64,000 nucleotides of DNA from Phocaeicola sp. (GTDB taxonomy: Bacteria > Bacteroidota > Bacteroidia > Bacteroidales > Bacteroidaceae), in assembly GCA_045647865.1 (NCBI GenBank), contig JAZRMW010000020.1, positions 37,915-101,914 on the forward strand. The letters run 5' to 3'. Position numbers and translations under genes: made by a program. Numbering within the stretch: position 1 is the stretch's first letter; each line of letters opens with the position of its first letter. Shown one piece after another: positions 24,056 through 45,077 of this stretch. The notes under the pieces are model-generated. The model saw only the letters and a list, made by a program, of their open reading frames with translations, had not been told where the DNA came from and ran no database searches.

Positions 24056-25909
24056 TTATTTTTCTGTTGGGTTATTGTTTACATCTTGTTTATAGACAAT
24101 ACCTTTATTCAGAATACAAGTTTTGTCATTGAATATATCATAGAACTCGATATCGGGATTATCCGTTCTGATTCCATGTAGGAGATAGGTATTACCGAAT
24201 GCTTCATCCATAATTGTTCCGACCTTTTGAGGTAGGTAAATCTGTTGTAACGAATGGCAGTCCCAAAAGGCTCTTTTCCCAATGAATTGTATCGTATTGG
24301 GTAATAAAATGGTTTTTAGATTATCACAACCAGAGAACATCTTTGCGCCAATTTCATTTTTTCTGATGGGGTAGTTGATGTAATACTTCCCTTCCGATTG
24401 AGTGAGATACCCTCCATTGACAATAGGTTTCTCTGCTTGCAACCAATTCCATTGTGCAGAAGAAATGTTGGTGAAATCAATTTTCTGATTTTTATACCGA
24501 ATTGTATATCCTATATCCTTGGCATTCTCTTTGAGATAGGACTCTTTTTTTCGGTCTTCTTTTAGGGTTACATTCCTTAAGTCTATGTGACATAAAGATC
24601 CTCTCTGTTTGAAAAAGTTCTGGTCATCAACAGCTCCAGCCATGCGACGAATGAGTCTGATGTCTTTGGCATTCAATTCCCCTTCGATAACTAATGTATG
24701 CAAGTGGATTTTCTCGTAATCGGTCAGTAAAGATTCTAGTGTTCCAGCTTCTTTGACTATAACCTTTTTGCCCATATTCGCATGCTTATCCGGTTCGATA
24801 CCAATGACCATATCATTATAGAGTAGGGGGTATTCATCCATTCCCGGGATGATGATGGCGCGATAGAACCCATTACAGTATCCGTCCCATCCGAGATTGA
24901 AATGCAGGAATTCTCCATCGTATCCGTCACAAACAAACGCGTGGCCTTCATTGCTGACAATGATAGGGCGTTTTTCGTCCAATTCTCTATAGGTCAATCC
25001 CAAGATGTATTCGGGTGATTGGGTGATTACTTTGCGTGTTCGATTTCCAGGAGTAATATAGTTTATGTGATCCTTTACATAAGTACACGTTGGAGCATAT
25101 CCGAAAAAGTTGATTAATGCCATTTTGATGTAATCACAGTTGGCACCGGTTGCGAATCTTCCGAAATCGGCTCCTACAGACAATCCTGCCGCGGCCATCA
25201 GTTTGGCAACAGATGTGATGCTTGCTGTATCTTTGGTGTATCTGTTATAAGAATCCTTCATTAGTGACCAATTGAATGTCAGGTTGTTGAAGTTTTGTGC
25301 CAATACATCTCCACTTTTGGTCTCGTAGGCGTATATACCCTCTCCCTTTTTCGGATGTTGGTGGTATCGCATGACTTGACACATGGCGACAGGTACACAA
25401 CCGACCAAGTGCTTTTCATTTTCTACTTGGCCTGATTGATTCCGGAAATAGAGATTGTTGTAAGGAGTATCCTGTCCCCAATTCGTTTGTCCCAATAATG
25501 GGGCTACTCGTTGTCTTTTCGGAGTGTATGGAAGCCTGTTTTGCTTTAATTGCAATCGCTTCTCATAGAGATAATTCAGCGAGTGTTTATATGCATCAAT
25601 CAACTCAAAGAAATTACCTCCTACATAATTGGCCAATCCTCCTTCGAATCCGTAAGCAAGAATGGGATTTACTAAATTGGGGTGGTATTTCTCGGTTGCA
25701 ATAAGCACAAAAATCTGACGATCCTTGCTGTTGAATAACAGGTATTCAGGTTTGGCTGTTGTTAATTGCATTTGACAACTGTCTGCTGATATTCCTTTTC
25801 CTTTCAGAAAATTACGCACTACTTGGGCTTCTTTGACGTATGATTGTGCGTATCCGGATGTTCCGATGAAAAAGATGCATAAAAGTACTGAAACGATATA
25901 TTTATTCAT
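24056..25909 (-). CDS. Peptidase C10 (streptopain-like) with C-terminal BspA-type leucine-rich repeats
   Basis: Signal peptide; WGQDTPYN, VGCVPVAMCQ (catalytic Cys), GHAFVCDGY (His), HFNLGW; L..I.LP..I..IG..AF repeats. Confidence 0.9.
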   Translation of the reverse strand: MNKYIVSVLLCIFFIGTSGYAQSYVKEAQVVRNFLKGKGISADSCQMQLTTAKPEYLLFNSKDRQIFVLIATEKYHPNLVNPILAYGFEGGLANYVGGNFFELIDAYKHSLNYLYEKRLQLKQNRLPYTPKRQRVAPLLGQTNWGQDTPYNNLYFRNQSGQVENEKHLVGCVPVAMCQVMRYHQHPKKGEGIYAYETKSGDVLAQNFNNLTFNWSLMKDSYNRYTKDTASITSVAKLMAAAGLSVGADFGRFATGANCDYIKMALINFFGYAPTCTYVKDHINYITPGNRTRKVITQSPEYILGLTYRELDEKRPIIVSNEGHAFVCDGYDGEFLHFNLGWDGYCNGFYRAIIIPGMDEYPLLYNDMVIGIEPDKHANMGKKVIVKEAGTLESLLTDYEKIHLHTLVIEGELNAKDIRLIRRMAGAVDDQNFFKQRGSLCHIDLRNVTLKEDRKKESYLKENAKDIGYTIRYKNQKIDFTNISSAQWNWLQAEKPIVNGGYLTQSEGKYYINYPIRKNEIGAKMFSGCDNLKTILLPNTIQFIGKRAFWDCHSLQQIYLPQKVGTIMDEAFGNTYLLHGIRTDNPDIEFYDIFNDKTCILNKGIVYKQDVNNNPTEK

Positions 25910-25913
25910 TATC

Positions 25914-27437
25914 TTATTCGTTTAATTTCATAGATTGCCATGAGTCTTTCAGTGCCGAAGAGATGGATACTGTAGGTCTTTGTAACTTCTCATTGACTTG
26001 TACAGATTCCAATCTGACATTATCTTTCACATAGTTTATCAGTTCTTTCAATGTGACATCTCCTTTCGTCTCTTTGATTTTCTTCAGCAAGAAATAGGTA
26101 AATAAACCGTGTTCCTTTTCTTGATAGGGTAATGCGGTTTCATCTTCTGAGGCCGCACTGAATACAATCATATTTCCTTTGGGAGCAATCTGTTTGGGTT
26201 TGATGACTACACCACGTCCTTCTACAACCATACCACCATCGCGTTTGGCCCCAGAAAAACAGGCATCCATGAATACCATGACTGATTTTACATTCAGTTC
26301 TTCCAACTCACGGTACAGGTCACGCAGCGAATAGCAAGCCCTGAACTGTTTTCCGTTGGAATCGATTGGTAATAGATAGACTTCACGACCGGTGGCATCA
26401 GGTACTCCATGACCGGCATAATAAAGAATCACCTTCATGTCTCCTCTGCGTGCTTCTGAAAGTTGCTTGAGTTTTTCCATGGTGCTGACCATCGTTCCAT
26501 AAGAAGCATCAGAAATGTGCATGATATTCTTTTCAGGTACCCCCAATGTCTTTTGGCAGTATTCGGCAAAAATATCCCCATCTTTCAATGCATAAGGGAC
26601 TTTGGATACCATGTTGTAGTTCTCATTGGAAATGATGACTACGTACGTTTCTTTATTTTCTATTTCAACTTCGGGAATGTAATAATCCACATCATAGATG
26701 AGTGTTTTCTGGATTTTAAGTAACTGCTCATCATTCGGATTGGCTGTTAATGCAATATCCAAATACTGTTTTAACTTTTTAGTGTCCTCAAGTTTCACAC
26801 AGTTGTTGATTGCCATAGACAAGAATTTGGCATTGGATGGATACTGTTTCGTGATTTCATCAAGCAGTTTCTGTGCAGATTCATAATCTTCAACATTCAT
26901 ATACGATTGTATAAGATACGAATACAGATTCTCCTGATGCTGGATGTTTTCTCCTAATTCCAAGCAGAGATTGATGTATCCAATCGCATGGGAATAATCT
27001 TTGGCCTTATATGTTTCCATCGCAGCATATTGAATCATATACATGGTCAAGTTGTCCTGCGTGGTCATCGTATCTTTGACAAAGATTTCCGACAGAAGAA
27101 CATCACAATGCACTTTGGCAACGGCCAAAGCCAATTCTTTATCATTCTTCTTGTAGTAATGTTCAAATGCTTTCCGACAGAAAGGGAACAGGTTGCTCAC
27201 AATCTTTTTGGCTTGTGTATGTGCCTGGGAATTGGGTTCGGTATTCGACATCACTGCAATATAATCTTCAATACATTGGCAATACGTAGCACATATCAGA
27301 GAATCTTCTCCTTGGTGCCTACTCAATTCCTGGAATTGTTTTAAACTTGCCTCTGCCTTTTCCAATGTTTGTGCAGATACTTGGTTACTCATCCATGTAC
27401 CAACAAAAAGTAACAAAAATATTCTCCAATTTTTCAT
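25914..27437 (-). CDS. Exported TPR + caspase-like (peptidase C14) protein
   Basis: Signal peptide; helical TPR-like region; YYAGHG and MDACFSG dyad; HGLFTYFLL. Confidence 0.9.
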   Translation of the reverse strand: MKNWRIFLLLFVGTWMSNQVSAQTLEKAEASLKQFQELSRHQGEDSLICATYCQCIEDYIAVMSNTEPNSQAHTQAKKIVSNLFPFCRKAFEHYYKKNDKELALAVAKVHCDVLLSEIFVKDTMTTQDNLTMYMIQYAAMETYKAKDYSHAIGYINLCLELGENIQHQENLYSYLIQSYMNVEDYESAQKLLDEITKQYPSNAKFLSMAINNCVKLEDTKKLKQYLDIALTANPNDEQLLKIQKTLIYDVDYYIPEVEIENKETYVVIISNENYNMVSKVPYALKDGDIFAEYCQKTLGVPEKNIMHISDASYGTMVSTMEKLKQLSEARRGDMKVILYYAGHGVPDATGREVYLLPIDSNGKQFRACYSLRDLYRELEELNVKSVMVFMDACFSGAKRDGGMVVEGRGVVIKPKQIAPKGNMIVFSAASEDETALPYQEKEHGLFTYFLLKKIKETKGDVTLKELINYVKDNVRLESVQVNEKLQRPTVSISSALKDSWQSMKLNE

Positions 27438-27498
27438 ACGATTATTTTTTAGATTATTGAAGTTTCCAAACAGGTTTCCTTAGAATGTTGAAGAGCAT

Positions 27499-29064
27499 TT
27501 ATCTGTCATAAATCAAGTCACCGGGTGTTTGACGAAGCAGACGGGTCATGACGATATGTACCGTAGCAATGGTTGCTACCACAATGACCACAATGGCCCA
27601 CATGGTTTTTGCATTCCATAGGTATAAGTAATTGAATTCTCCATCCTTGAGGAGACCTAATACCGGGAGCAGAAGTTCTATCAACCAGGTGATACCCAAA
27701 GCAACACATACGGCAGACAATATCATGGCCAAAAGAATCAGAACATAGACATTGATCAGTTCCGAAGAATTGATTCCGAAAGCCTTGAATGTTCCCATAT
27801 TTCGCTTCACCTTCTGGAAATAACTCTGCAACATGTTTACCACAAACATGATGATACAAATCAAAGCAAAAACAATCATTGCCCATGACAAAATATTGGC
27901 CATCACACTCACTGCATTGAAATTCTCCTTGGAGGCGACTTGGGTCATATCGACTTGAATTCCAAAGTTTGTTTTAGCATAATTCTCGAATGCTCGAATT
28001 GAATCTAAAGAGGCAAAGTTGACAGAAAGACATCTGCGGTCATGTATAGGAAAATCTTTCATGTTGTAATCATAAAGGCGTATTACCTGATTTCCTAATG
28101 AGTTTTTGATTTTACTTTCTAAAGAAATGCATTCTGATAGTGGTAAATGATATATACGAACAAATGTACCTTTTTTCCATGGTTCAAGATGACTTACGAC
28201 ATTTCTATCATCGTTACCCATTTCCCATGTACGAATGATTGTTTGTGAAAAAGAATCAGGTAAAAGTGTACGGATATACTCTACAAAATTATTTGCATGT
28301 TCTACATCGCCTTCTACAAAATAAAGCATTTTTTCAATGTAATCTTTGGATATACTTAATGCCCAGTTGTTTCCATTGTATTTTTCATAAAAACATTGAG
28401 TTCCTATAACATCTTTATTCATTGGTAAACGACGAACTACAGCCAATAAAGGAATTGGAACAGGGGAAAATTTTCCTTCAACTAAATCTATTCCTAATGT
28501 ATCAGCTCCTTCGCTGTTAGATTGGAAGTAAATGAAAGATGGAATAGAGTCAAGTGAATATCCTAATCTAAGCAATATATCTTTGGTGATGATAATCCCT
28601 AAACTTTTGTTTTTTAGCAAATCTTTAGGAATAACACAGTTTTCGACTACATTGTCTTCATCAAGTATGGCGTCCATTATAGGAGCATCCATCTTTTCAA
28701 AGAAACGCCAATCCAAATAATGTCGGTCTTTGCAATCTGCAGTAAAAAGAGAATAAGAATAATAGTTGTCTCCTTGGACTTCTGAAATTTTATATTGTTG
28801 ACGAAGGTTTTCATCGGAAAGTTCATTGTATAATTGTTTAAAACTTTCAATTTCATGCTCGTCCTCTTCTTTCTCAATATTCAGCCAATTGGTGAAAGGA
28901 TCATTCATTTTGTCAGACAGATAAAGCATACTGCCATTGCTAAAGGAAATGGATACAAAGGTTGCTACCAATACAATGACCAATAGCCACAGATTTACAA
29001 AGCGAGGACCCAATACCACTCTGTACTCGCGTTTTGCCAATAAATTCAGATATTCTTTTGCCAT
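27499..29064 (-). CDS. MacB/FtsX-type ABC permease with a large periplasmic domain
   Basis: One N-terminal TM, ~340-aa extracytoplasmic loop, three C-terminal TMs with ...RNMGTFKAFG; start MAKEY at 29064. Confidence 0.85.
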   Translation of the reverse strand: MAKEYLNLLAKREYRVVLGPRFVNLWLLVIVLVATFVSISFSNGSMLYLSDKMNDPFTNWLNIEKEEDEHEIESFKQLYNELSDENLRQQYKISEVQGDNYYSYSLFTADCKDRHYLDWRFFEKMDAPIMDAILDEDNVVENCVIPKDLLKNKSLGIIITKDILLRLGYSLDSIPSFIYFQSNSEGADTLGIDLVEGKFSPVPIPLLAVVRRLPMNKDVIGTQCFYEKYNGNNWALSISKDYIEKMLYFVEGDVEHANNFVEYIRTLLPDSFSQTIIRTWEMGNDDRNVVSHLEPWKKGTFVRIYHLPLSECISLESKIKNSLGNQVIRLYDYNMKDFPIHDRRCLSVNFASLDSIRAFENYAKTNFGIQVDMTQVASKENFNAVSVMANILSWAMIVFALICIIMFVVNMLQSYFQKVKRNMGTFKAFGINSSELINVYVLILLAMILSAVCVALGITWLIELLLPVLGLLKDGEFNYLYLWNAKTMWAIVVIVVATIATVHIVMTRLLRQTPGDLIYDR

Positions 29065-29066
29065 AC

Positions 29067-29942
29067 TTATTTCTTTCTTAAATACAATTCCAAGGCATCT
29101 GATGTATAGATGTCTGTACCATTGCTCCAATGCTGACGTGTTTCTCCCTCGGGAATGAATACACAGGTTTTATCTATTACTCCATACATCACATCTTCGT
29201 CCAAATCGTGTTTTTTGGGACGAATCTCTTTCCGAATCTTGATAATGACATCCGCAAAGGTGATGGCCAAATGCATGTCGTGTGACACAATGATGGCCGA
29301 AGCTCCCTGTTGTTCTTCCAATTTGTCGGAAAGAATCTGCATAACGCGTACTGCATTCTCGGCATCCAAGTTTCCTGTAGGTTCGTCGCCAAACAATACG
29401 GTGAAGTCGGGGAGGATAGCACGTGCAAATGCCAAACGTTGTTGCTGACCTCCAGAAAGTTCTTGAGCCATGCGATCTTCATCAATGTGGTCAAGTCCCA
29501 ATTCTGCTAACACCTTGCGTGCCCGTTTGAAGCAGGAGTATTGGGTATAACCTTGCAGCATACGGGTGAATGAGATATTCTCGAAAGCCGTAAAGTTACG
29601 CATCAAGTTGGTGCTTTGGAAAATGAAACTGTAATGTTTCAGTCGGAAATTCGACAAAACCTTTTCATCGTTCTTCCGCCACAACTCTGCCAAATCTACG
29701 GATGCGCCCTTTTCATCGTAAAACAAGATGTGAGCTTTGTCATCGGGAACAATGGTATTGTTCATTAGTCCGACAGTTTCCAAAATGGTACTTTTGCCGA
29801 TACCCGATTCCCCCACAATAAAAATCCTTTTTCCACGAGGAATCTCCAAGTGGTTTATTTCCAAAACCACTTTAGAGATGCCTTCTTGGTATGCTTTATC
29901 GTAGGAACAACGTAAGTTCTTTATTTCAAATAATAGTTTCAT
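29067..29942 (-). CDS. ABC ATPase, LolD/MacB-like
   Basis: GESGIGKST, LSGGQQQR, DEPTGNLD, SHD. Confidence 0.92.
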   Translation of the reverse strand: MKLLFEIKNLRCSYDKAYQEGISKVVLEINHLEIPRGKRIFIVGESGIGKSTILETVGLMNNTIVPDDKAHILFYDEKGASVDLAELWRKNDEKVLSNFRLKHYSFIFQSTNLMRNFTAFENISFTRMLQGYTQYSCFKRARKVLAELGLDHIDEDRMAQELSGGQQQRLAFARAILPDFTVLFGDEPTGNLDAENAVRVMQILSDKLEEQQGASAIIVSHDMHLAITFADVIIKIRKEIRPKKHDLDEDVMYGVIDKTCVFIPEGETRQHWSNGTDIYTSDALELYLRKK

Positions 29943-29956
29943 GTATTTATATTCTA

Positions 29957-32338: not shown

Positions 32339-32358
32339 GTTAAATCTTTTTACGGTTA

Positions 32359-33036
32359 TTAATATTCATCATCACTCTCTAATAATAATGGCCTAAAGTC
32401 TTTATTTATTTCTCCCCAATTTCTTTCTCCAAAATATAATTCTTCATTTTCAAGTCTCTTATGAAGTTTTTCACTACACCATACACGCCATTCGAATTCA
32501 AAATCGTTTTTAAAGCGATCTAAGCCTAAAACCCAATATAGTTTTGCGATTAAAGATTCATTGTAACCATTTACCCAAAATTCATTGTCAACATAAAAAT
32601 TGAATTTTATTTTTTCATATTTCAAATGGCCTGTTTCATTCAGAAAGTCATATTGATTAAGAATCTTAATGATTGAATCTACATCTGAATCTGGTTCGAC
32701 TCTATAATCTGTCTTATTCAATTCACTTAACCATTCTTCAATTTTTTCTTGATTATCATTTGATAAATTCTCATCTGCATCCAAATTTACTGTTACTATT
32801 TTGGGGGAATATCCTTTTGCCAAATAAAATATGCATGCATCCACTTCTGTTGCTTCATATTCTGAAACCTTAGTGTAATAAAGATCATGCAGTTTATTTA
32901 TTAATGTAGCTATGGGGGTATCCATATTGTGTGCTACATATATAAACTCAAAAGTCTTTATTTTTTTTTGTGCAAAAAGAAGACTATCGCTAAATAATGA
33001 CGATGATAACAATAATAATAAAAATACCTTTTTCAT
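32359..33036 (-). CDS. Exported hypothetical protein
   Basis: 225-aa ORF with signal peptide, tightly packed in the cluster. Confidence 0.75.
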   Translation of the reverse strand: MKKVFLLLLLSSSLFSDSLLFAQKKIKTFEFIYVAHNMDTPIATLINKLHDLYYTKVSEYEATEVDACIFYLAKGYSPKIVTVNLDADENLSNDNQEKIEEWLSELNKTDYRVEPDSDVDSIIKILNQYDFLNETGHLKYEKIKFNFYVDNEFWVNGYNESLIAKLYWVLGLDRFKNDFEFEWRVWCSEKLHKRLENEELYFGERNWGEINKDFRPLLLESDDEY

Positions 33037-33042
33037 TGCTAT

Positions 33043-33930
33043 TTAGTCTTTGGGGTATTCAACTTCCAATTCAAACGCAATAATTACATTTTGTTTGTTA
33101 TAAGAAATGTTCGTAACTTTGACACTTTCCCATAAACCAAACTCTAATCGTCCTTCTATATCAGTTAAATTTGTTGGTCCTTCACCCTCATTTTCACGAA
33201 TATTGGTATAGGTAATTTTAACTGAACGAGAAATAAAATGTCTATTCTTGTCAATTGAAGCTTGTGAATCTAAAATTTTTTCTTCAAGTTCTTCTTTGGT
33301 CCAAGGATTAGCTAGTATTTGTGGCTTTGGTGTACTTACTTCTTCTATTTTGTTGTCTGGGCTCTTCCCACTTAAAACGGGAACTTTTTCGAATCCTATA
33401 ACTTCCATGGTGGGAGTTTCTACTTTTGCATCTTTATTTGAAATAACCACGTTATAAAAATAAGAGCCAGATTCAGTTCCTCCTAAATTAGAAAATTTTC
33501 CATCAGTAGAAGTTTTAAGCACCTTTCCGTTATTATCCATCAAGACATACTCGTACTTGTAGTTTGTTTTTTCCTTTCCTTCAAATTCACATTTGGCTAC
33601 AAATGAATAGGTATTATTGCCATGGTCTGTGAAATCACTATGAGAAATTTGAGCTATTTTTAATATTTCTTTAAGTTCTTCAATAGGATCAGGTACATCA
33701 CTTCCTTCTTTTTCTCCTTTCATAAAAAACAACGCAGTACCACATCCTACAACAGCAATAGCCACGAAGGTTAGGATTTTCAACCACATGGTAGTGTTGT
33801 TGACAGGGGTAACATTGTCTGATTGGCAATTTCGACATACTACGTCTTCTAATTCGTCACCTGTGACGTAGAACTGTTGGCCACAATCGTGGCACTTGAA
33901 CAGTTTCATTTGATTGGCATCTTTTCCCAT
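33043..33930 (-). CDS. Zn-ribbon + single TM + extracytoplasmic domain protein
   Basis: CHDC...CRNC, then a hydrophobic helix and a beta-rich C-terminal region. Confidence 0.8.
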   Translation of the reverse strand: MGKDANQMKLFKCHDCGQQFYVTGDELEDVVCRNCQSDNVTPVNNTTMWLKILTFVAIAVVGCGTALFFMKGEKEGSDVPDPIEELKEILKIAQISHSDFTDHGNNTYSFVAKCEFEGKEKTNYKYEYVLMDNNGKVLKTSTDGKFSNLGGTESGSYFYNVVISNKDAKVETPTMEVIGFEKVPVLSGKSPDNKIEEVSTPKPQILANPWTKEELEEKILDSQASIDKNRHFISRSVKITYTNIRENEGEGPTNLTDIEGRLEFGLWESVKVTNISYNKQNVIIAFELEVEYPKD

Positions 33931-33945
33931 ATTTTTATTCTGTTT

Positions 33946-35553: not shown

Positions 35554-35556
35554 TTA

Positions 35557-38500
35557 TTATTTTACAACCACTTTCTTTACCACACGCTGATTTCCGGTCA
35601 AACAATGAAGGACATACATACCTTTGCGGACATCTTGTAAAAACTCTGTCTCATTGTAATCCTTCTGCATGGCATAGTCAACCTTCTTCACCATCTCACC
35701 CGTTACGGAATATGCTGCAACAGATATTGGCGACATGCCCGAATCATTACTTACGGATACTATCTGGTCCGGTGCCTTAGTTTCGTCCATAGAACCAATA
35801 CCTACAGGGTCGGAATAACAATAGAAATCAATGATATTGTCATTGTCAACATCATATTCCCATAGGGAACGACCACGCAATCCTTTCTGTCCACCACGGA
35901 GGAAGAGGGTACGGTCCTTTCCTGTATATAAATGCTCGCCATCTGCCATATAGAAGTCGAAAAGAATATCAGCTTGTTCCAATACATTCTGTTCTACATG
36001 ATACATAAGAATGAACAAATTGGACTTTCCACCACCTTTCTCTACGATTTGGGTTGGTTTCACCGGCCTGCGATAGACTGTGACAGGGAAACTGATCACT
36101 TCTGGGGCTATTAATTCTTGTCCTTCTCCATCTAAATTGGTATAGACAAAGTCGTATTGATGTGATTCAACACGTTTCTCAAATACTTGTCCTTGTTCAT
36201 CCAATTTTATTACAAAGTCCTGAGTGTGACCATTATTCTTGTTGTCCCACTTGATCCATTCGGTGTTTATATCCTTATAATCTCTTCTCCATTTGTAATA
36301 CCAACCGTTGGGGTTTCCTCCCATCGGTGGTGTGACAGAGAAGGTTCTTGAATCCGCATCGCGCATCTCTTGTGTATAATCCTGATTCATGGTTGAGGCT
36401 TGGGGAGTCGAATAATCCACTACGACGAATTCCATTTCACCTTGACATCCGACTTCTCCATCTACGGTATTGGCATAAGTTAGCTTATGAACAATGGTTT
36501 CAGGCTTTTCATTTGCATTATCTGCAATGTATTCGTATGCCAACGAACCTTCAGCAGCCTCAATCGGACCCTTATTGTCTGTCCATGTAAATGTCCAACC
36601 GTTTTCGTATCCGCCTATATTCCGTACATTAAATGTCATACGGTCTTTATATGTCACTCCTGCCAGTAGATTGTACTTTCCAGGTTGTGTTATGGCAATC
36701 ACTTGAGGTTGGGCATACATTTTTATTTGTATTCGGTACTGTCTTGAGAGGTTCTTTCCATTGGGCAATGTGTTTGTTGTTACACAAACGTAGGTCATGG
36801 ACTTGGTGGCCTTAATCTGAAATTCTTCATCTCCTAATACTGATAGAATGCCTTCAGATTCTGAGATTTCGTTGCCTGCTAATGTATTCTCTTTATACCA
36901 TTTACATGTCCAGTTTTCCTCGTTACCTCCGAACATATTCACGGTCACTTTTCGGGTGTATCCTTCGTACATGCCCAATTTATGGACATAGTTGTAGGGC
37001 TCATATCTTCCCACATCAATACTGTCGCTTAACGTAACTACAACAGAGGCTTCGGGCCAAATCTTGACGTAGCAGGTCAAATTTCCTTTATAGGGAGTCA
37101 CATTTCCCGGTAATTTGTTCTCAAATTCCACGAATATGGTATCGCAATAAACGGTATCTTGTTTATTCTCTCTTAAGTCATAAGAATAATTCTTGCGATT
37201 GTTACCTTCTACCACCTCCTGATTCTTTGTCCACTTATAAGTCCAATCGGTAGAGTATCCACCGTTTATGTCCAGATCGATATAGGCCGATTCTTTGGAA
37301 TAATGGTTGTATTCTTGTGTCAGTTCATCAAAACTGTCAGAGTTGGTGAATTTGACAACAGGCGTTCCATATACTTTATAAGTATGCTTATACTCTTTCT
37401 CGTACCATTTGATATCTGAGTATTGGGGGTCAGAATAGGATGCATTCAAGGATACGACCTTGTTGACAATCTGTCCGTCGGCACAAGAGAAAGAGGTTGT
37501 CCATTGCTCGTTGTTACCTTCAGATGACGGGGTATTATCAATCATCCAAACATATTTCCCGTTTTTATGGGCCTTTTCAAGGGAATTGATTGTCAATGGC
37601 TCAGGTACATTGCCCGACCACATGTGGACGGTCTTGTCGTGCCATGAAACGGTACGCATCAAGGGCTTTTCACGTAATTCCACAGTCATTGACGGGTATT
37701 CATAAGGAATATCATCCAATGAGGGCAGCTCTTCACCATTCTTTATTTTCCAAACAACGTTCTTTACCTCTACGGTATATCGTCCAAATTGGAGATTACG
37801 CATATTGAAGGACTCGGATGATTGAGTCTCTGCAAAATCCGTGTCTGCATTTTGTATGTCGTATGAGATCTTAGATATTTGATAGTTGTTTTTGTCATAG
37901 GACATCGCGAATGTAATGTCTCGTTCACCGGCACCTTCCAACAAATAAGAAGTGCTGTTGCGTTCGATGATTTCAGAATTGTATGCTTCATCTTTGAATT
38001 TGCCTGCAGTCAAATTGATGGACAATACAGGCTTTTTATAAACGGTATAGGTATAGACTTTATCAAACGCTTCTTCGTACCATTGGGTCTTACCGTCGGG
38101 AGCAAGGCATACAGCAGACAAAGAGAGAGTCTTTTCTGCACGTACTTCGTTTATCGAAAATGTTTTTGTCCATTCTTGTCCAGAAGTCTTTTCGTTGTCC
38201 ATACTCCATGAGAAGTTCCAATTCAACTCATTGGGCAAGGCGCCGACTTCCAAAGACACTTTTTCTCCTTCATAAAGAGAGGTTTTACCATTCGCGAAAG
38301 AAGGTACATACAAGGGTACTTCGTGAAATTCAAACACTTTGCTTACTGAAAGTACATCCAAGGGTAAAAGTTCCAACTCCTTATCTTCATTGGTGGTCAA
38401 TCGAATGGGCTTTATGGTGATTCGATATTTCCCGACAGAATTAGCCTGCAATATTCTGTTTTTAGTCAATTCTTGCAAAGTCAGCTCCTTTATGGTATCT

Positions 38501-38802
38501 GTAAGTATAGTAGTATATGTTCCATTGTTGTCCATATCATAATTCAGGCACAGATACAGTGAATCATGCGGAATATTATCTTCGGCCCAATCTTCATACG
38601 TAATCTGCCAGTTCACCAGACTTCTCAACATGACATGGTGAATACCTCCTGTTTCTATTGCAACATCATTGTAGCGTGAATCTGCAGTTTTTGCAGAAAC
38701 CGTAAAATTGACATCCAATTTCAATGAATATGCATTCAGGACAAAAAATAGTCCCCCTATGAAGATACACCAGCGTAAATGAGCATTTATAAAGTGCTTC
38801 AT
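35557..38802 (-). CDS. Large Ig-like repeat surface protein with T9SS C-terminal domain
   Basis: Signal peptide; repeated GG...W.(Y/F/C).W modules; C-terminus AYSVTGEMV...KGMYVL...VVKKVVVK. Confidence 0.8.
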   Translation of the reverse strand: MKHFINAHLRWCIFIGGLFFVLNAYSLKLDVNFTVSAKTADSRYNDVAIETGGIHHVMLRSLVNWQITYEDWAEDNIPHDSLYLCLNYDMDNNGTYTTILTDTIKELTLQELTKNRILQANSVGKYRITIKPIRLTTNEDKELELLPLDVLSVSKVFEFHEVPLYVPSFANGKTSLYEGEKVSLEVGALPNELNWNFSWSMDNEKTSGQEWTKTFSINEVRAEKTLSLSAVCLAPDGKTQWYEEAFDKVYTYTVYKKPVLSINLTAGKFKDEAYNSEIIERNSTSYLLEGAGERDITFAMSYDKNNYQISKISYDIQNADTDFAETQSSESFNMRNLQFGRYTVEVKNVVWKIKNGEELPSLDDIPYEYPSMTVELREKPLMRTVSWHDKTVHMWSGNVPEPLTINSLEKAHKNGKYVWMIDNTPSSEGNNEQWTTSFSCADGQIVNKVVSLNASYSDPQYSDIKWYEKEYKHTYKVYGTPVVKFTNSDSFDELTQEYNHYSKESAYIDLDINGGYSTDWTYKWTKNQEVVEGNNRKNYSYDLRENKQDTVYCDTIFVEFENKLPGNVTPYKGNLTCYVKIWPEASVVVTLSDSIDVGRYEPYNYVHKLGMYEGYTRKVTVNMFGGNEENWTCKWYKENTLAGNEISESEGILSVLGDEEFQIKATKSMTYVCVTTNTLPNGKNLSRQYRIQIKMYAQPQVIAITQPGKYNLLAGVTYKDRMTFNVRNIGGYENGWTFTWTDNKGPIEAAEGSLAYEYIADNANEKPETIVHKLTYANTVDGEVGCQGEMEFVVVDYSTPQASTMNQDYTQEMRDADSRTFSVTPPMGGNPNGWYYKWRRDYKDINTEWIKWDNKNNGHTQDFVIKLDEQGQVFEKRVESHQYDFVYTNLDGEGQELIAPEVISFPVTVYRRPVKPTQIVEKGGGKSNLFILMYHVEQNVLEQADILFDFYMADGEHLYTGKDRTLFLRGGQKGLRGRSLWEYDVDNDNIIDFYCYSDPVGIGSMDETKAPDQIVSVSNDSGMSPISVAAYSVTGEMVKKVDYAMQKDYNETEFLQDVRKGMYVLHCLTGNQRVVKKVVVK

Positions 38803-38829
38803 ATCATCAAAATCTTTTTTGCTTATTAT

Positions 38830-39903
38830 TTATTTCATTGTTATCAACCATGCGGCAAAGCCTCCTACGACCAAAGCTGCAACAATCAGTACAACCCATG
38901 AAACCCATTCATTGCTTTTTTTCTTTATCTGTTTCTTGGGACGGTTCTCATTTGGCTTGTTCTCCTTTTGTGGAGTGGTCGGATGAAACTTTTGAGTGGG
39001 ACTTTGGACACGTTCGGGTTTGGCTTGTGCTGTTGTCTTTTTTCCTTCTACCGGAACTTTCCAAGTCGGTTGAGGAGACTCGCCTTTAATCTTTTTGCGT
39101 GCGTAGTCTGCCAATTGCTCTGCTGTAGGTCTGTCCCATGTCTCCAAAGCCAAACATGACTGCATCACCATATTTAATTCCGGGGAAAATCCTTCTGGCA
39201 AGTCGGGCATCTCTGCTCCACTTCTCAGCATAGTGCCTCCCTGTCCACAGAAGGGTAAATCACCGACAATCAGCTCATAAATGGTTGCTCCTAAAGACCA
39301 AATGTCACTGGCTTTTACTGGCATGGGATGTTTGCTCCATTTTTCAGGCCCCATATATGCAGCAGAACCGGATGCTAAGTTGCCGCTGGTTCTTGTTAAG
39401 GTCTTGCGTAGTTGTTGGCTGATACCGAAATCTGTGATGACATATTCCCCAGTTTTGGCTACCAAAATATTTTCAGGCTTAATATCTTGGTGGATAATTG
39501 GAGAAGGCTGACGGTGCAAGTAAGCTAATCCGGAAGCTACATCGGCAATAAACTCCCAGATTTCAGTCTCTTTCATTTCTCCGATTAATTTAGCTACCGA
39601 ACCTTGTGGGCAATAAGGCATGACTAAATAAGGACAACTGTTCCCTTCGTCTTTGCAGATTCCTAAATAGGTAGCATGAAGCAGGTTGGTATGGTTCAAA
39701 TTGAAAGCAACTTTGAACTCTTTGATAAATTCATTAGAATCTTGGGAATCCATTTTTGCATACATCTTGATGGCGACTTCCAATTCTGTCCATTGGTCAA
39801 AGGCCAACCAAACTTTACCGAAGCTACCTTTTCCTATTAATTTTTTTAATAAGAAATGTCCGTCAAAAATCATTCCAGGTTTATATTGGTTATCTTGTTG
39901 CAT
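38830..39903 (-). CDS. Hanks-type Ser/Thr kinase, C-terminal membrane anchor (non-RD)
   Basis: GKGSFG, VAIK, HQDIKPEN, DFG, YMGPE, DIWSLG; C-terminal TM. Confidence 0.93.
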   Translation of the reverse strand: MQQDNQYKPGMIFDGHFLLKKLIGKGSFGKVWLAFDQWTELEVAIKMYAKMDSQDSNEFIKEFKVAFNLNHTNLLHATYLGICKDEGNSCPYLVMPYCPQGSVAKLIGEMKETEIWEFIADVASGLAYLHRQPSPIIHQDIKPENILVAKTGEYVITDFGISQQLRKTLTRTSGNLASGSAAYMGPEKWSKHPMPVKASDIWSLGATIYELIVGDLPFCGQGGTMLRSGAEMPDLPEGFSPELNMVMQSCLALETWDRPTAEQLADYARKKIKGESPQPTWKVPVEGKKTTAQAKPERVQSPTQKFHPTTPQKENKPNENRPKKQIKKKSNEWVSWVVLIVAALVVGGFAAWLITMK

Positions 39904-39939
39904 AAGTTGTTCTGTTTTTATTGTTTAATGTGGTAATGG

Positions 39940-41052
39940 TCAATTTCTAAAAAAACTGATAGCTATCAATGCCAGAATAATCAGTAATAACGCGATGATT
40001 AGTGTTTGGCTAAAACCATTGGAAGAACGAGTTTCAGTAGTGGTCAAATCTACTTTGTTTTTCTTTTTAGGAGTCTCGGTTTCTTCCTCTTCCGAGAATC
40101 CAGACTCATCCAGTTCCACTGTATTCATCAGTTTCTTTTGGGACTTTTCTTCATCTTCAGCTGAAAGGTTTATTCTGCGAACATTTTTTTCATCAAAGAG
40201 TGTATAAGATGAAGTGGTTTCATCTGCTTCTACCGTAGTTGTTTCAAGCAGCGCAACTGTGACATTATCGTAACCTCCAGCTTTCAGAGCGCATAGGATC
40301 AGTTGTTTCCGACATTGTTCGATATCCTCTTTGGCTCCATCCATCACTTGTAGAATTTCTTCATCCCGGCAGACTCCACACAAACCGTCGCTACAGAGAA
40401 GAATTGTGTCTCCAGATTTCAATCGATAGGCTGTGTAATCGGGATTGGCTCTTCCTTGGAAATCTCCCAAGCAACGGGTGATGATGTTGCTATCGGGGTG
40501 GTCGATTGCGAATTCTTCATCCAGTTTGCCGGCATCTACCAATTCCTGTACGTAAGAATGGTCTTTGGTCAGACGCATCAATCCTTCTTCAGCATTGAAA
40601 ACGTATGCCCGGCTGTCGCCACACCATACAATATGAGCGACATCACCAATGACCCATGCTATGACGATGGTTGTTCCCATTCCTTTGGTTTCGGGATTCT
40701 CCTTGACATGTCTCTTGATTTCCTTGTCAGCATCCACTACCACTTTGCACATGAACTTCTCAATTGACTTTTGGCTTTTGCTTATACTGCTCAAGTCTGT
40801 GTCCATGAAATATCTTTTTATGGTATCTACAGCTATCGCAGAGGCCACTTCACCAGCATTGAGTCCACCCATGCCGTCAGCTACCACCAAGATGGCTCCA
40901 TCTTTTCCTAAAGGTATCAATTGGGAAGCATCTTGAGGTACAAACCAATCCGATTGTGACAAATCTTCATTGGTGATAAAATTGTCTTCGTTGTTCGTGC
41001 GCACACAACCTACATGAGTTGCAGCAGTCAATCGAAATTCTATTCTAGACAT
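39940..41052 (-). CDS. PP2C/PPM Ser/Thr phosphatase, C-terminal membrane anchor
   Basis: RTNNED, VADGMGG, GDSRAY, DHS, CSDGL, DNVT; C-terminal TM. Confidence 0.94.
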   Translation of the reverse strand: MSRIEFRLTAATHVGCVRTNNEDNFITNEDLSQSDWFVPQDASQLIPLGKDGAILVVADGMGGLNAGEVASAIAVDTIKRYFMDTDLSSISKSQKSIEKFMCKVVVDADKEIKRHVKENPETKGMGTTIVIAWVIGDVAHIVWCGDSRAYVFNAEEGLMRLTKDHSYVQELVDAGKLDEEFAIDHPDSNIITRCLGDFQGRANPDYTAYRLKSGDTILLCSDGLCGVCRDEEILQVMDGAKEDIEQCRKQLILCALKAGGYDNVTVALLETTTVEADETTSSYTLFDEKNVRRINLSAEDEEKSQKKLMNTVELDESGFSEEEETETPKKKNKVDLTTTETRSSNGFSQTLIIALLLIILALIAISFFRN

Positions 41053-41079
41053 AATCTTTTATCAAAAATTAAACAAATA

Positions 41080-41118
41080 TACTTGCCCGCAAGATTTGCA
41101 TCTCTACACGGGCAAGTA
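41080..41118. other. Intra-operon stem-loop
   Basis: tacttgcccg (41080-41089) / cgggcaagta (41109-41118), perfect 10-bp stem. Confidence 0.6.
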
Positions 41119-41150
41119 AGGAAATAAAATGAGTGATTTGGTTCTTCTTG

Positions 41151-42374
41151 TTATGATATTGGATCAAGAGCTTGAATGTATTCTAAAGTGTCATTTTTAC
41201 GGTTAAATAGATCATCCCATGTCCAAATATCTTTATTTTCTGATGCTTTTCTTATTGAATCTTCTATAGCAGCATTCTTTTGTTGTTCTTCAAGTTCTTT
41301 AATCTTACCATTAGCTACTTCCAACAGTTTCGTCAAGTCTTGGATTTGGCCATTCATCTCTTCACCTGTTGTTTCAGATTGTTCTTTCAGCTTCTCTATT
41401 TCAGCTTTCAATGCGGTGACATATTCATCATTCTGCTTTTTCATGATGTCATATTCCTTCTGCATTTCTGCCTGAATAGAATCTTGCATAGCTTTGGCAG
41501 CTTTCCAGGCTTCAGATTCTGAAACGCCTTTTGCACGGACTTCTTCCAGTGCTTGCATCGCTTTGACTACCTTTTCTTCAGCAAGTTTCAACTGTTCTTC
41601 TGTTGTTCCTGAAGTTTGCTTGAGTGTGCTCAACTCTTCTTGTAACAATACCAAATTTTCCTTGGACTTGTTGAACTCACTTAAAATTTCTAAGCTCTTC
41701 TCTTCGGTTTCTTTTACTTTGGCAGCTTGATTGTTCAATTGACGGGCTTGTTTCTGAACTTTGTCAGTCTGCTCGTTAAGAGCCTGTTCCATTTCACCGA
41801 TTATGCGAGAATAGTTTTCTCCTTGTTTATATATATAGGCTGACAAACCTGCAATGGCAAGTACCAGAACAACTGAAAGAATGGCTATTCCGGTCTTGTA
41901 GGGTTTGAGAGCCTGTTTCTGGAAAAGTTTCAGACGTTCGGTCATGGCAATGGATTTTACCAATCCTTTGGCACCTTGGGGAGCAATGAATCCGATAATC
42001 GGACCTTTTGAAGAGAGGCGGATTTCATCACCAGTGTTCAACATCTGCTCACCGTTGATGGGTTGTCCGTTTACGAACGTTGAGTTTGTCTTTGACAAGG
42101 AGATAAGCTTCCAACCCTCACCTTCGCGAACGATAGCTGCATGCTTGCGGCTAACAGTTTCGCAACCATCATCGAAACGGATTTGGCATTTTGAATCACG
42201 GCCCAACTCAATTTGGTCAACAATTACTTTCTCAGAATCACCGGCTTTATGATATTGAGTCGTTGTTTTGAATTCAAGAATGTAAAAAGTACGACCTGCA
42301 CCATTAACCAATGCACCCATACCTGCACCCACTGAACCAGCAAGGGTTCTCTTGTAAGCTTGTGTTTTTTTCAT
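41151..42374 (-). CDS. FHA domain + TM + long extracytoplasmic coiled coil
   Basis: LGRD...VSRKHA...NSTFVNG FHA motif; TM; heptad-rich C-terminal half. Confidence 0.9.
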   Translation of the reverse strand: MKKTQAYKRTLAGSVGAGMGALVNGAGRTFYILEFKTTTQYHKAGDSEKVIVDQIELGRDSKCQIRFDDGCETVSRKHAAIVREGEGWKLISLSKTNSTFVNGQPINGEQMLNTGDEIRLSSKGPIIGFIAPQGAKGLVKSIAMTERLKLFQKQALKPYKTGIAILSVVLVLAIAGLSAYIYKQGENYSRIIGEMEQALNEQTDKVQKQARQLNNQAAKVKETEEKSLEILSEFNKSKENLVLLQEELSTLKQTSGTTEEQLKLAEEKVVKAMQALEEVRAKGVSESEAWKAAKAMQDSIQAEMQKEYDIMKKQNDEYVTALKAEIEKLKEQSETTGEEMNGQIQDLTKLLEVANGKIKELEEQQKNAAIEDSIRKASENKDIWTWDDLFNRKNDTLEYIQALDPIS

Positions 42375-42398
42375 AATTACAGTTTTTTATTTTGTTTA

Positions 42399-43685
42399 TT
42401 AATATTGTTCGTATCTGAATTTCATGCTTCCGATGGAAATGATGTCATCTGTTTCAAGCCAGAAACCCGAGGCTTTCACTTCGGTCGAATTGACATAAGT
42501 TCCATTAAAGGATAATTCCCATTTCTTGGATTCCCGATTCCATTGTCCATCTCGGATGCGCCAATGCAGGCGTTCCATATCTGTCTCTATGGTACAATGT
42601 CCACGTGATACACAGGGATCCACTACCACAATTTGATTGTCCTTTTGCCTGCCTAACGTGATATTCATCCGTGATGAACTGTTTGACATCTCTGTCAAAT
42701 CATAAACCATACCGTACCCATCACCATGCATTACTCGCAGGCGAGCACCTTTAATCGTCTGTAAGGCATCGTTTCCTTTTTTATTTAGGAGTTCGGATTC
42801 TTCGATATGAGGAATCAGTTTATAAATGTCGGGTATTTTTTGGATACGCTCCTTATAATTGGGTCTTAAGCAACCTTCCAGAAGTGCTCTCCATAAATTG
42901 CCATCAGGAACATTCTTCAATTTCCTTCTATCCCAATCACCAACCTTGATGCGTTTTTGATAGTTTACCAAATCATCATGGTCTTCCAATTTGCCAAATG
43001 GCAATTCGCCTGTCAGCAATTGGTATATCATAACACCAAAAGAGAATATGTCGCGTGTTGGGAGTACGGTCTGTTTTCGTGCTTGAGGTTCACTTGCTTC
43101 AGGTGGCATATAGGCGTAGGTGCCAAATATTTGTATCGGACGTCCCCAAAAGTCTTTACCTGTCTTTCGGTTATCAACGTCTCCAACGATTCCAAAATCA
43201 GTCAACGCCGCTGTTCCATCGGGCTTGAACAGAATGTTCTCTAATTTCAAGTCACGATGAATCTTACCATTCTTATGCAAATCATGCAGACCGTGCAAGA
43301 TGTCCGATGCAATTTTGGATACATTCAGTTTTTTGTTTCCAAGCATCGAAACCAAATCTCCTCCAGGACAAAATTCCATTTTGATGTATGGATTGCCTTT
43401 GATAAATCCGTAGTCAATCGAATGTACCAAATAGGGACTGGCGATTTGTCCGGTCTTGAATTCCATTTCAAAACGTTCGACAAGCGCCTGACGAATATCT
43501 GGGGATACATCCCACAGACGCAGAATTTTTAAGGCATATACGGTTCCTTTTTCATCTTCGACCTTATACACCTTACCAAAGGCACCTTCGCCTAATGTGG
43601 CCAATACCTTCAATCCAGAGGGCATACGCTCTCCTTTTTTCCAATCTATGCGTTGTGGAATTTCGTTGAGTTCTACGGATTTCAT
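42399..43685 (-). CDS. Soluble Hanks-type Ser/Thr kinase with C-terminal FHA domain
   Basis: GEGAFG, ALK, HRDLKLEN, DFG, YMPPE; LGRQ...VSRGH...NGTYVN. Confidence 0.94.
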   Translation of the reverse strand: MKSVELNEIPQRIDWKKGERMPSGLKVLATLGEGAFGKVYKVEDEKGTVYALKILRLWDVSPDIRQALVERFEMEFKTGQIASPYLVHSIDYGFIKGNPYIKMEFCPGGDLVSMLGNKKLNVSKIASDILHGLHDLHKNGKIHRDLKLENILFKPDGTAALTDFGIVGDVDNRKTGKDFWGRPIQIFGTYAYMPPEASEPQARKQTVLPTRDIFSFGVMIYQLLTGELPFGKLEDHDDLVNYQKRIKVGDWDRRKLKNVPDGNLWRALLEGCLRPNYKERIQKIPDIYKLIPHIEESELLNKKGNDALQTIKGARLRVMHGDGYGMVYDLTEMSNSSSRMNITLGRQKDNQIVVVDPCVSRGHCTIETDMERLHWRIRDGQWNRESKKWELSFNGTYVNSTEVKASGFWLETDDIISIGSMKFRYEQY

Positions 43686-43699
43686 ATGATTTTTGGCTA

Positions 43700-44323
43700 T
43701 TATTCAACTCTAGCAAATCTCAATCCGCCAATCAAAACAATGTCGTTCAATTCCCAATCAAGTTTTATTGAACTCTTCAGTTCTATCACACCCAAAGGAG
43801 ACACCGCATTGCTTTTTGTGTCAATGACAGGACGGTCTATAGCCAATAATTTATAAGAATAAGATTCTTCTGTAATTTTCTCTTCTGTAGATTCTGGTTG
43901 AGATGTCAATTCCGTTCCAGTTTCTGTATTATCTACTACCACTGTTGCACGTGGATTCCGCTTCTCTTCTGATGGAGTAGCATCAAATTGTGTCGCTTTG
44001 GGACTTGTTTTTTCCTGGATGATGGTAGAATGATCTACAACTGTTTCTTTATTTGAATTCTGCGAACCTTGATGTTGGAGAACTTGTGTCTTCTTGGAAT
44101 TTCTCTGGTAACCGCATTCTGGACAAACTGATACATTATCGGCTAACTGATAACCACATTTTTCACAAACAATAAAAGTGTCATCATTTTCCTTTGAACT
44201 GCCATTTGAATAAGAGGGCCATTCCCAAGCACTGCTCTTTGGATCTAAAATTTGATTACACTTTGCACATTTTGTCGCCCCTTCAGGATTGTTCCAACCA
44301 CAATTATTGCATCTCATACGCAC
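43700..44323 (-). CDS. Double Zn-ribbon protein with Thr-rich linker and degenerate FHA-like tail
   Basis: CNNC..CAKC and CEKC..CPEC; tail LNDIVLIGGLRF resembles the last FHA strands but lacks the GR/SxxH residues. Confidence 0.8.
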   Translation of the reverse strand: MRMRCNNCGWNNPEGATKCAKCNQILDPKSSAWEWPSYSNGSSKENDDTFIVCEKCGYQLADNVSVCPECGYQRNSKKTQVLQHQGSQNSNKETVVDHSTIIQEKTSPKATQFDATPSEEKRNPRATVVVDNTETGTELTSQPESTEEKITEESYSYKLLAIDRPVIDTKSNAVSPLGVIELKSSIKLDWELNDIVLIGGLRFARVE

Positions 44324-45068: not shown

Positions 45069-45077
45069 ATTGGTACT

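Follow-up and report, generated by a model that had tools for sequence, protein, structure and literature searches.

What does a Ser/Thr-phosphorylation system do when its parts reach from the cytoplasm to the cell surface, and one of them belongs to the TssR family of the Bacteroidota type VI secretion system (T6SS)? The question is raised by a gene cluster in a 64,000-nucleotide stretch of a Phocaeicola genome (the window, by which we mean the whole stretch analysed), where 14 consecutive open reading frames (ORFs) on the minus strand, numbered here g01 to g14, run from position 44323 down to 24056. The intergenic gaps measure 3–98 bp, and the apparent overlaps in the ORF listing are an artefact of taking the longest ORF. 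The genome itself is a 3.05-Mb metagenome-assembled genome (MAG) of 66 contigs, 83% complete. Domains were assigned with Pfam, topologies by a hydropathy scan and catalytic motifs by direct inspection, and together they uphold the initial annotation, which had read 14 co-oriented, tightly spaced genes with these domains, topologies and intact catalytic motifs from the letters alone. We find that the cluster is conserved as a unit, that its invariant heart is a TssR-like protein beside an ATP-binding cassette (ABC) pair, and that it stands apart from the T6SS. Tentatively, we propose that it controls a surface protein from the inside.

The protein that the initial annotation called TssR-like is encoded by g10 (29957–32338; 793 amino acids). 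Behind a signal peptide it comprises an N-terminal barrel, a von Willebrand factor A (vWA) domain bearing a metal ion-dependent adhesion site (MIDAS) and the TssR C domain, and it is predicted to be periplasmic. Pfam matches to TssR_VWA (56.8 bits) and TssR_C (38.4 bits) are over the 25.7-bit cut-off, the TssR N-barrel match (24.0 bits) falls just under it and TssR_M is not matched; a genuine T6SS TssR scores 124, 85, 270 and 99 bits on the N, M, VWA and C models, respectively. Comparison of g10 with a genuine T6SS TssR by hhalign gave a probability of 96.9 (E = 1.5e-10, 21% identity). Judged by Pfam and by this profile comparison, the name was well chosen, and g10 is a true but distant TssR paralogue. 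In its family the MIDAS residues D351, T353, S355 and G467-D468 are invariant and T435 is nearly so. The motifs D-x-T/S-x-S and G-D are kept in 25 of 25 aligned ABC-linked proteins, whereas the two T6SS TssR proteins in the same alignment read E-G-K-E-Y or E-P-G-E-H, and G-E, and have lost the MIDAS; the vWA domain of g10 keeps the full predicted metal site. All 17 aligned N-termini of TssR-like proteins, read by eye and not with a predictor, show an Ala-type signal peptidase I (SPI) site and no lipobox Cys. The T6SS TssR proteins of genomes G050 and G311 carry the lipoboxes LSSC and FSSC, and TssR of B. fragilis has been reported as a lipoprotein with a signal peptidase II (SPII) signal.

Directly downstream lie the genes of an ABC pair. 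The ATPase g11 (29067–29984; ABC_tran), probably starting at 29942, which gives 291 amino acids, a form that is also on record, has Walker A and LSGGQ motifs and is 67–91% identical across all loci; its best NCBIfam matches are LolD, FtsE and MacB, all under the equivalog cut-offs. The permease g12 (27499–29130; probable start 29064) has four transmembrane (TM) helices, a Pfam FtsX C-terminal domain and a large periplasmic domain of about 350 amino acids between TM1 and TM2, which gave no Pfam match to MacB_PCD and resembles MacB_PCD clusters by language-model features (0.94–0.95, a lead only). The pair, whose permease the initial annotation had called MacB-like, is of the Lol/MacB/FtsX type, as is TagST.

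How constant is this neighbourhood? Profile searches found distant TssR-like genes in six genomes of the order to which the window belongs (G163, G270, G046, G418, G231, G036) and in three beyond it (G619, G535, G563). All nine are directly followed by an ABC ATPase gene and, wherever the contig continues, by an FtsX permease gene; in G270 and G231 ATPase and permease are fused into a MacB-like protein of 1032–1065 amino acids. Genome G163 retains PP2C and FHA genes. G418 has g08-like and g09-like genes, a 1599-aa T9SS (type IX secretion system) protein with Ig/SprB repeats and a 542-aa protein, and no kinase within about 10 kb. G619, a 100% complete genome from another order of the class, presents in sequence an FHA protein, a PP2C, a kinase, a Calx-beta/MBG giant with a T9SS C-terminal sorting domain (CTD), a barrel, a TM protein with two PKD domains, the TssR-like protein, a TssR-N paralogue, the ABC ATPase and the FtsX permease. 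What stays invariant throughout the family is a TssR-like vWA protein of the periplasm, equipped with a MIDAS, whose gene immediately precedes those of a MacB/FtsX-type ABC pair. In a quick maximum-likelihood tree, three T6SS TssR proteins formed one long, fully supported branch and the 17 gut proteins that accompany a kinase core formed another clade, with the remaining ABC-linked proteins placed between the two; the tree is unrooted, has many long branches and gives no direction. Some loci have multiplied the gene. In L052 (G418:C26, 12098–18841), two near-identical full-length TssR-like genes with terminal branch lengths of 0.016 and 0.024, pointing to a recent tandem duplication, flank the g08-like and g09-like genes, and G163 and G046 carry extra paralogues of 460–490 amino acids that consist of the N-terminal part only.

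Does the operon then belong to a T6SS after all? The initial annotation took it to stand alone, and this was borne out. Using the Bacteroidota T6SS markers TssC (PF17541) and TssN (PF17555), we found no TssC, TssN or TssD in the window's genome, within the limits of its 83% completeness, and no T6SS genes within the window. PF17541 was likewise absent from nine other carriers (G163, G418, G046, G270, G619, G535, G563, G231, G036), several of which are 98–100% complete. The positive control G050 was recognised with E = 2e-231 and has a T6SS-iii locus with ClpV, TssC, TssB, Hcp, TssR, TssP, TssO, a TssO-like gene, TssG, TssK and TssN. TssN scored above cut-off in 6 of 401 genomes of the order, none of which is the window's genome or an ABC-linked TssR-like carrier. 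None of the examined operon loci adjoins T6SS genes, and in three genuine T6SS loci (G050, G677, G311) no ABC pair lies beside TssR. The system stands alone and is T6SS-independent. The choice of marker matters here: PF05943 (VipB) gave no match in the window's genome, in 10 carriers or in the 401 genomes of the order, yet it also missed the complete T6SS-iii locus of G050; we therefore discarded these negatives and redid the test with PF17541 and TssN. Calls of ‘no T6SS’ in Bacteroidota that were made with PF05943 are unsafe, and PF17541 or TssN is needed. Homologues of the T6SS membrane complex have been said not to occur outside T6SS loci (Bongiovanni et al. 2024, PMC10781749), a claim to which the operon family is a clear exception.

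Beyond its heart, the gene set is conserved as a unit, as the initial annotation had supposed: 13 other loci share the gene order at 28–90% protein identity, namely L005 (a GTDB species genome, from a Muribaculaceae MAG) and 12 metagenomic or MAG contigs. Carrier loci come from Alistipes, Bacteroidaceae and Muribaculaceae; under NCBI names the TssR-like protein is assigned to Alistipes sp. in L043 and to a Bacteroidaceae bacterium in L045. In the ten loci that are complete enough (L005, L006, L007, L008, L043, L044, L045, L065, L066, L067), g06–g12 follow one order, that is, giant T9SS protein, barrel, Zn-ribbon/Ig protein, small vWA-fold protein, TssR-like protein, ABC ATPase and FtsX permease; the contigs of L009, L010 and L011 end too early to show it. 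Genes for kinase, PP2C and FHA proteins adjoin this envelope half wherever flanks are available (L011 has none), in two layouts. Type A (the window, L006, L007, L008, L009, L010, L043, L065, L066, L067) has upstream, in order, a Zn-ribbon scaffold, kinase-FHA, FHA-TM-coiled coil, PP2C and kinase, several loci being cut inside this half. Type B (L005, L044, L045) has FHA and kinase genes upstream and, downstream, a kinase, a PP2C, FHA proteins, an FHA-FHA-TM-trypsin fusion and an exported protein of about 420 amino acids. The fusion is encoded at L005:18351–19907, at L044:17813–19381 and at the start of L045, each time followed by an exported protein of about 420–440 amino acids; its TM helix (183–201) places the trypsin-like protease in the periplasm and the two FHA domains in the cytoplasm. 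Co-location of these genes is far beyond chance, which the synteny data rule out as an explanation. The TssR-like family has at least 479 matches. A search of 24 genomes of the same genus found no TssR-like gene, and within its genus the operon is therefore an accessory island. One type-B locus, L045, may possibly be decaying: at L045:12383–15792 two TssR fragments of 162 and 122 amino acids come after a full-length TssR-like gene, the FtsX permease is split into ORFs of 295 and 268 amino acids, and a HicAB toxin-antitoxin pair lies just downstream.

The cytoplasmic half of the operon comprises g01–g05. At its head, g01 (43700–44323) encodes a cytoplasmic double Zn-ribbon protein of 207 amino acids (Pfam Zn_Ribbon_1 and DZR; no TM helix), whose orthologues stand at the head of the type-A loci L006, L007, L008 and L010. 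Its Thr-rich low-complexity linker (window 43930–44100) contains T-x-x-D motifs, of which TVVD and TQFD are found again in the L006 and L008 orthologues, making them candidate FHA docking sites. The soluble RD kinase g02 (42399–43685; 428 amino acids; Pkinase 131.9 bits) has no TM helix, ends in an FHA domain (43.4 bits), possesses GxGxxG, K, HRD and DFG motifs and is 48–89% identical across type-A loci. g03 (41151–42374; 407 amino acids) is bitopic, with an FHA domain (59.3 bits) that weakly matches an FhaB/FipA model, a TM helix at 156–174 and an E/K/Q/L-rich C-terminal half forming a predicted coiled coil of about 230 amino acids, long enough by our own estimate to span a periplasm; its orthologues in L008, L009, L010 and L043 are longer still (550–627 amino acids). 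The PP2C phosphatase g04 (39940–41052; 370 amino acids; PP2C_2 57.2 bits) has DGMGG, GDSR and SDG motifs and is tail-anchored by a TM helix at 350–368. So is the non-RD kinase g05 (38830–39903; 357 amino acids; Pkinase 160.1 bits), with VAIK, HQD and DFG motifs and a TM helix at 337–355, two residues past which the protein stops. None of the kinases and phosphatases of the operon has an ectodomain, and Pfam recognised no transcription factor or cytoplasmic effector among the 14 proteins.

The envelope half begins with g06 (35557–38802), a repeat-rich, adhesin-like protein of 1081 amino acids with a signal peptide and a T9SS C-terminal sorting domain, predicted to reside on the surface. The sorting domain (residues 1016–1080) scores 27.5 bits with Por_Secre_tail against a cut-off of 27, and 22.5 with TIGR04183 against a cut-off of 23; the T9SS translocon SprA is encoded in the genome (SprA_N 722 bits). 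g06 aligns at several offsets with its 1576-aa counterpart in L005, and counterparts in general combine the CTD with Ig_3, Ig_7/SprB or Calx-beta/MBG repeats. The gene of the outer-membrane protein g07 (33946–35553; 535 amino acids, signal peptide) always follows that of the giant protein, an arrangement that recalls sprB-sprF. g07 has no Pfam match; in profile searches its C-terminal half matched OMP_b-brl_2 and OmpA-type barrels and its separate N-terminal domain of about 130 amino acids matched barrel proteins of about 450 amino acids, which identifies it by homology as a barrel distantly related to OMP_b-brl_2 proteins. It ends in an invariant K-F. Its distant homologues in G173, G113, G300, G331 and G221 proved to be ordinary OmpA or OMP_b-brl_2 barrels in unrelated contexts and not copies of the system.

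Two smaller proteins precede g10. The bitopic g08 (33043–33930; 295 amino acids) combines a cytoplasmic CxxC...CxxC Zn-ribbon, a TM helix at 52–70, a periplasmic FN3/Ig-like domain and a small alpha/beta C-terminal domain, as seen in the alignment and in an AlphaFold2 model (predicted local distance difference test, pLDDT, 80.4) in which residues 81–181 match FN3/Ig folds with Z of about 8. In every locus its slot immediately precedes the vWA pair. The slot is filled in G619 by a homologue of TssP with two PKD domains (phmmer 6e-9), and TssP and TssR are neighbours in T6SS loci as well, where TssP binds only TssR (Bongiovanni et al., PMC10781749). g08 shares with TssP an N-terminal TM helix, an Ig-type domain, a C-terminal domain and its place beside the TssR gene; profile-profile comparison of the two was not significant (probability 0.3–1.3). 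The exported g09 (32359–33036; 225 amino acids, signal peptide) has a predicted vWA-like fold lacking the MIDAS: the best 50 Foldseek matches of its AlphaFold2 model (pLDDT 76.6, predicted template modelling score 0.76) in the PDB were all vWA domains, at a moderate level (best E 2e-4, template modelling scores 0.4–0.5). Among 1.84 billion representatives, clustering at 50% identity gives its family 250 clusters, of which 123 match at E <= 1e-30. PDB sequence searches with g08, g09 and g10 profiles brought up no solved relative, the matches being limited to Zn-ribbons and, marginally, vWA domains, and ESM Atlas feature searches with g08 and g09 were uninformative (0.75–0.80). A complex prediction for g10 (22–793) with g09 (24–225) scored 0.00, giving no answer and hence evidence neither way.

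The last two genes are of a different kind. g13 (25914–27437) encodes an exported TPR-caspase of family C14 (Peptidase_C14 75.4 bits) with intact His (AGHG) and Cys (DAC), and g14 (24056–25909) an exported C10 (SpeB-like) cysteine protease (159.4 bits) with BspA-type leucine-rich repeats (LRR_5) and intact Cys and His; both bear signal peptides. The initial annotation regarded these proteases as coupled to the system, which the comparison does not bear out. Among relatives, the two occur together only in L006, L007 and L066, which share the flanking genes of the window and are its nearest relatives, and other loci have different proteases or none: L043 continues downstream with a PGAP1-like hydrolase and a different C10 gene, L065 with a barrel and unknown proteins, L067 with a second TssR paralogue. 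For this reason we regard g13–g14 as accessory and lineage-specific; the conserved system is g01–g12, and the proteases are swappable cargo.

What might such an assembly do? LolCDE, MacB, FtsEX and TagST do not transport across the inner membrane; their ATP hydrolysis drives the movement of a domain on the periplasmic side, which does its work there. With slightly less than even confidence, we propose from the sequences that the operon encodes an ABC-powered envelope device which is turned on and off through threonine phosphorylation and works from inside to outside on a surface protein of adhesin-like kind. Its working end would lie outside the cytoplasm, where the ABC pair would hydrolyse ATP to move its periplasmic domain, like Lol, MacB and FtsEX. 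This movement would act on the periplasmic vWA proteins g09 and g10 and would reach the barrel-anchored surface protein by way of the bitopic proteins, with the coiled coil of g03 spanning the periplasm. Whether the device is on or off would depend on reversible threonine phosphorylation that is read by FHA domains, set by the tail-anchored kinase with its phosphatase, by the fusion of kinase and FHA and by the Zn-ribbon scaffold with its Thr-rich linker: phosphorylation at the inner face of the membrane would recruit the FHA proteins and serve as a gate for both the ABC motor and the bitopic proteins. The outcome may be a controlled exposure, anchoring, processing or release of g06, with the exported proteases as interchangeable accessory tools that process the surface complex, caspase and C10 here and the FHA-FHA-TM-trypsin protein in the sister layout. 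We favour the direction from inside to outside because the kinases and the PP2C lack ectodomains, because no cytoplasmic output is encoded and because, in the sister loci, a protease beyond the membrane is joined to FHA domains within one protein.

Several points weigh against this proposal. The sorting domain of g06 lies barely over the Pfam cut-off. No membrane-fusion adaptor for a classical MacAB-like tripartite pump was recognised, and Pfam gave no HlyD/MFP, TolC or LolA match among the 14 proteins; the coiled coil of g03 might take an adaptor-like role. At 83% completeness, the missing T6SS genes of the window's genome fall short of proof, and association between any two of the parts is our inference from sequence. 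Finally, the bitopic g03 and g08 could equally pass a periplasmic signal inwards, as TagQ and TagR are reported to do for PpkA (PMC13713981).

The last point leads to a serious rival, which we nevertheless hold to be unlikely, namely a sensor working from outside to inside: envelope proteins would detect surface contact or envelope damage and activate the kinases via the bitopic Zn-ribbon and FHA proteins, as TagQRST does with PpkA, and the kinases would then act on an unlinked cytoplasmic target. With a kinase, a PP2C, FHA proteins and an ABC pair of the Lol/MacB type, the parts do match those of the threonine phosphorylation pathway, whose sensor is reported to need the ATPase activity of TagST (PMC13713981); moreover, a MIDAS-bearing vWA domain is a ligand-binding module, and g08 and g03 each have one domain on either side of the membrane. 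But why should a sensor pathway end in an operon without a cytoplasmic output, and begin with kinases that have no ectodomain? The fusion of FHA domains to a periplasmic protease in the sister loci points outwards, and the sole target reported for Pseudomonas PpkA is Fha1 of the T6SS (PMC13713981), a system that has no counterpart here. That the operon relays an envelope-damage signal, as the initial annotation suggested, may still be inferred, but the parts list fits control from inside to outside at least as well.

A further rival arises from the way in which the operon varies. Between the window and L006, L007 and L066, which share its flanks, g08, g09 and g10 are only 36–51% identical, compared to 97% for PheS, 90% for the ABC ATPase, 86–91% for the PP2C and 74–91% for the cytoplasmic parts; this excess divergence points to diversifying pressure or cassette exchange acting on the periplasmic proteins. 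One could thus imagine a conflict or defence island for surface surveillance or for action against phages or competitors, with the exported proteases as effectors and the variable periplasmic proteins as specificity determinants, and with its accessory distribution, a GC content below that of the flanks and a protease cargo that differs from locus to locus all fitting such an island. We consider this improbable. A PADLOC scan of g01–g05, g07–g10 and g13 returned only generic kinase-domain matches (mad6, PD-T4-6), weak coiled-coil matches and a weak caspase match, and the g13 caspase weakly matches EACC1-type models as well; g01 and g07–g10 matched nothing, and no specific model matched any core component other than the kinases. 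The proteases bear signal peptides and would therefore be unable to kill from within like abortive-infection caspases, most loci do without them, no immunity-like or toxin-like genes were recognised, and a tblastn search with g10 against phage and plasmid collections gave no match. Of the role in defence or conflict voiced in the initial annotation, the fast-diverging periplasmic parts offer indirect support and no more than that. Very improbable, lastly, is that the operon is a detached regulatory or membrane module of a T6SS encoded in the unassembled 17% of the genome: membership of g10 in the TssR family and the incomplete assembly would allow it, but 10 of 10 carriers lack PF17541 TssC, several at 98–100% completeness and with a working positive control, the seven carriers of the order (G000, G163, G270, G046, G418, G231, G036) are not among the TssN genomes, TssR lacks an adjacent ABC pair in the three genuine T6SS loci, and the ABC-linked proteins have a MIDAS and no lipobox, the reverse of the inspected T6SS forms (two of three inspected per feature).

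Comparison with known systems helps to place the proposed device. The nearest is the threonine phosphorylation pathway of the Pseudomonas aeruginosa H1-T6SS (TagQRST-PpkA-PppA-Fha1), which likewise joins a Hanks kinase, a PP2C, an FHA protein and a Lol/MacB-type ABC pair in one locus with periplasmic and outer-membrane partners, and in which ABC ATPase activity is reported to be part of the TagQRST sensor (PMC13713981). The initial annotation called the operon an analogue of this pathway, and the shared kinase/PP2C/FHA/ABC set agrees with that; the wiring, however, differs. The kinases of the window are tail-anchored or soluble and carry no periplasmic vWA ectodomain as PpkA does, they have no outside sensor of their own, and the vWA domain resides on the separate TssR-like protein. 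No T6SS was found in the window's genome whose assembly could be under Fha control, and the operon encodes a pair of kinases, three proteins of the FHA-bearing or scaffold kind, a giant T9SS protein for the surface and a barrel dedicated to the system. By analogy, and as a nearly even call, the operon may work like TagQRST-PpkA-PppA-Fha1, except that its output would be at the envelope or the surface and not the firing of a T6SS. To the TssN-Q-O-P-R complex of T6SS-iii (PMC10781749) it is related through g10, whose homology to TssR extends across N barrel, vWA and C domains, and, in G619, through a TssP homologue directly upstream of the ABC-linked TssR-like gene, the neighbour pair of T6SS loci. 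The operon has, however, no TssN, TssO/Q, sheath, Hcp or ClpV, and g10 departs from T6SS-iii TssR in its TssR_VWA score (57 against 270 bits), missing TssR_M match, intact MIDAS, SPI signal and constant pairing with an ABC transporter. We also considered the ternary conflict systems with vWA proteins described by Kaur et al. 2020 (PMC7159879), which are built on MoxR ATPases, and set them aside as a different thing.

Among type VII ABC systems (MacB, LolCDE, FtsEX), the window shares the LolD/FtsE/MacB-type ATPase and the FtsX-domain permease with four TM helices, and relatives have the fused MacB-like form; in contrast to these systems, no MacA-type adaptor, TolC, LolA/B or EnvC-like partner was recognised, and the constant partner is a vWA protein. 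To our knowledge, no characterised type VII member has a vWA protein as partner. The actinobacterial fhaA-fhaB-pstP-rodA-pbpA-pknA-pknB operon similarly groups FHA proteins with two kinases of the Hanks type and a PP2C of the membrane, but the operon of the window has no RodA or PbpA, its kinases lack PASTA or other ectodomains, and it is joined to outer-membrane and surface hardware. LapD-LapG-LapA of Pseudomonas controls a giant adhesin from the inside out, with the adhesin delivered via a type I secretion system (T1SS) and cyclic di-GMP as the signal. Purely as an analogy, the operon resembles it in having a giant repeat adhesin at an outer-membrane protein, periplasmic cysteine protease(s) and an inner-membrane reader of a cytoplasmic signal; it differs in using phosphothreonine instead of cyclic di-GMP and the T9SS instead of the T1SS, its proteases are not family-wide, and no homology is expected.

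The surroundings of the operon are ordinary housekeeping genes, and the PheS protein among them clusters at 90% identity or more with proteins that bear the NCBI name ‘Bacteroidaceae bacterium’. The cluster has a GC content of 0.32–0.41 and is flanked at 0.44–0.47 by PheS, DUF4348, MurB and MBL-fold hydrolase genes on one side and, on the other, by genes for a 535-aa DUF3352-like membrane protein (45505–47112, minus strand), found upstream in L006 and L007 as well with 64% identity across the available part, and a FadL/TodX-like barrel (47320–48825, minus strand). Directly upstream of g01, at 44486–45107 on the minus strand, lie two paralogous small ORFs with a common helix-turn-helix-like core of about 70 amino acids, present as a single copy in L006 and L007 (75 amino acids, 84% identical), which may be local transcription regulators of the operon. 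A scan of the cluster for sigma-70 promoters and terminators found sites no more frequently than in shuffled sequence and does not cover Bacteroidota promoters; on co-transcription it is uninformative.

All modules of the operon are thus of known kinds, and their assembly is uncharacterised. The initial annotation did not recognise a characterised system, and we agree: literature searches joining TssR with MacB, or FHA, PP2C, vWA or FtsX with Bacteroidetes, gave nothing specific, and no paper on the operon was found. For the origin of the T6SS-iii membrane complex, the operon family offers homologues in a T6SS-free, ABC-linked and widespread context with an intact vWA metal site, and the idea of a co-option thereby becomes testable. 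A bolder version, which we regard as rather doubtful, holds that TssR (and TssP) of the Bacteroidota T6SS were borrowed from an older and more diverse ABC-driven envelope apparatus, itself a new class of machine in which a MacB-type motor, acting via MIDAS-vWA proteins and controlled by Ser/Thr phosphorylation, would move a giant adhesin delivered by the T9SS, expose it or shed it. The operon is among the largest uncharacterised Ser/Thr-phosphorylation operons of gut Bacteroidales, and in commensals that are abundant in the gut (Alistipes, Bacteroidaceae, Muribaculaceae) it connects kinases of eukaryote-like type with the cell surface. If it is true that it controls a surface adhesin or envelope proteolysis, it would bear on colonisation, aggregation, and phage or immune recognition of these bacteria.

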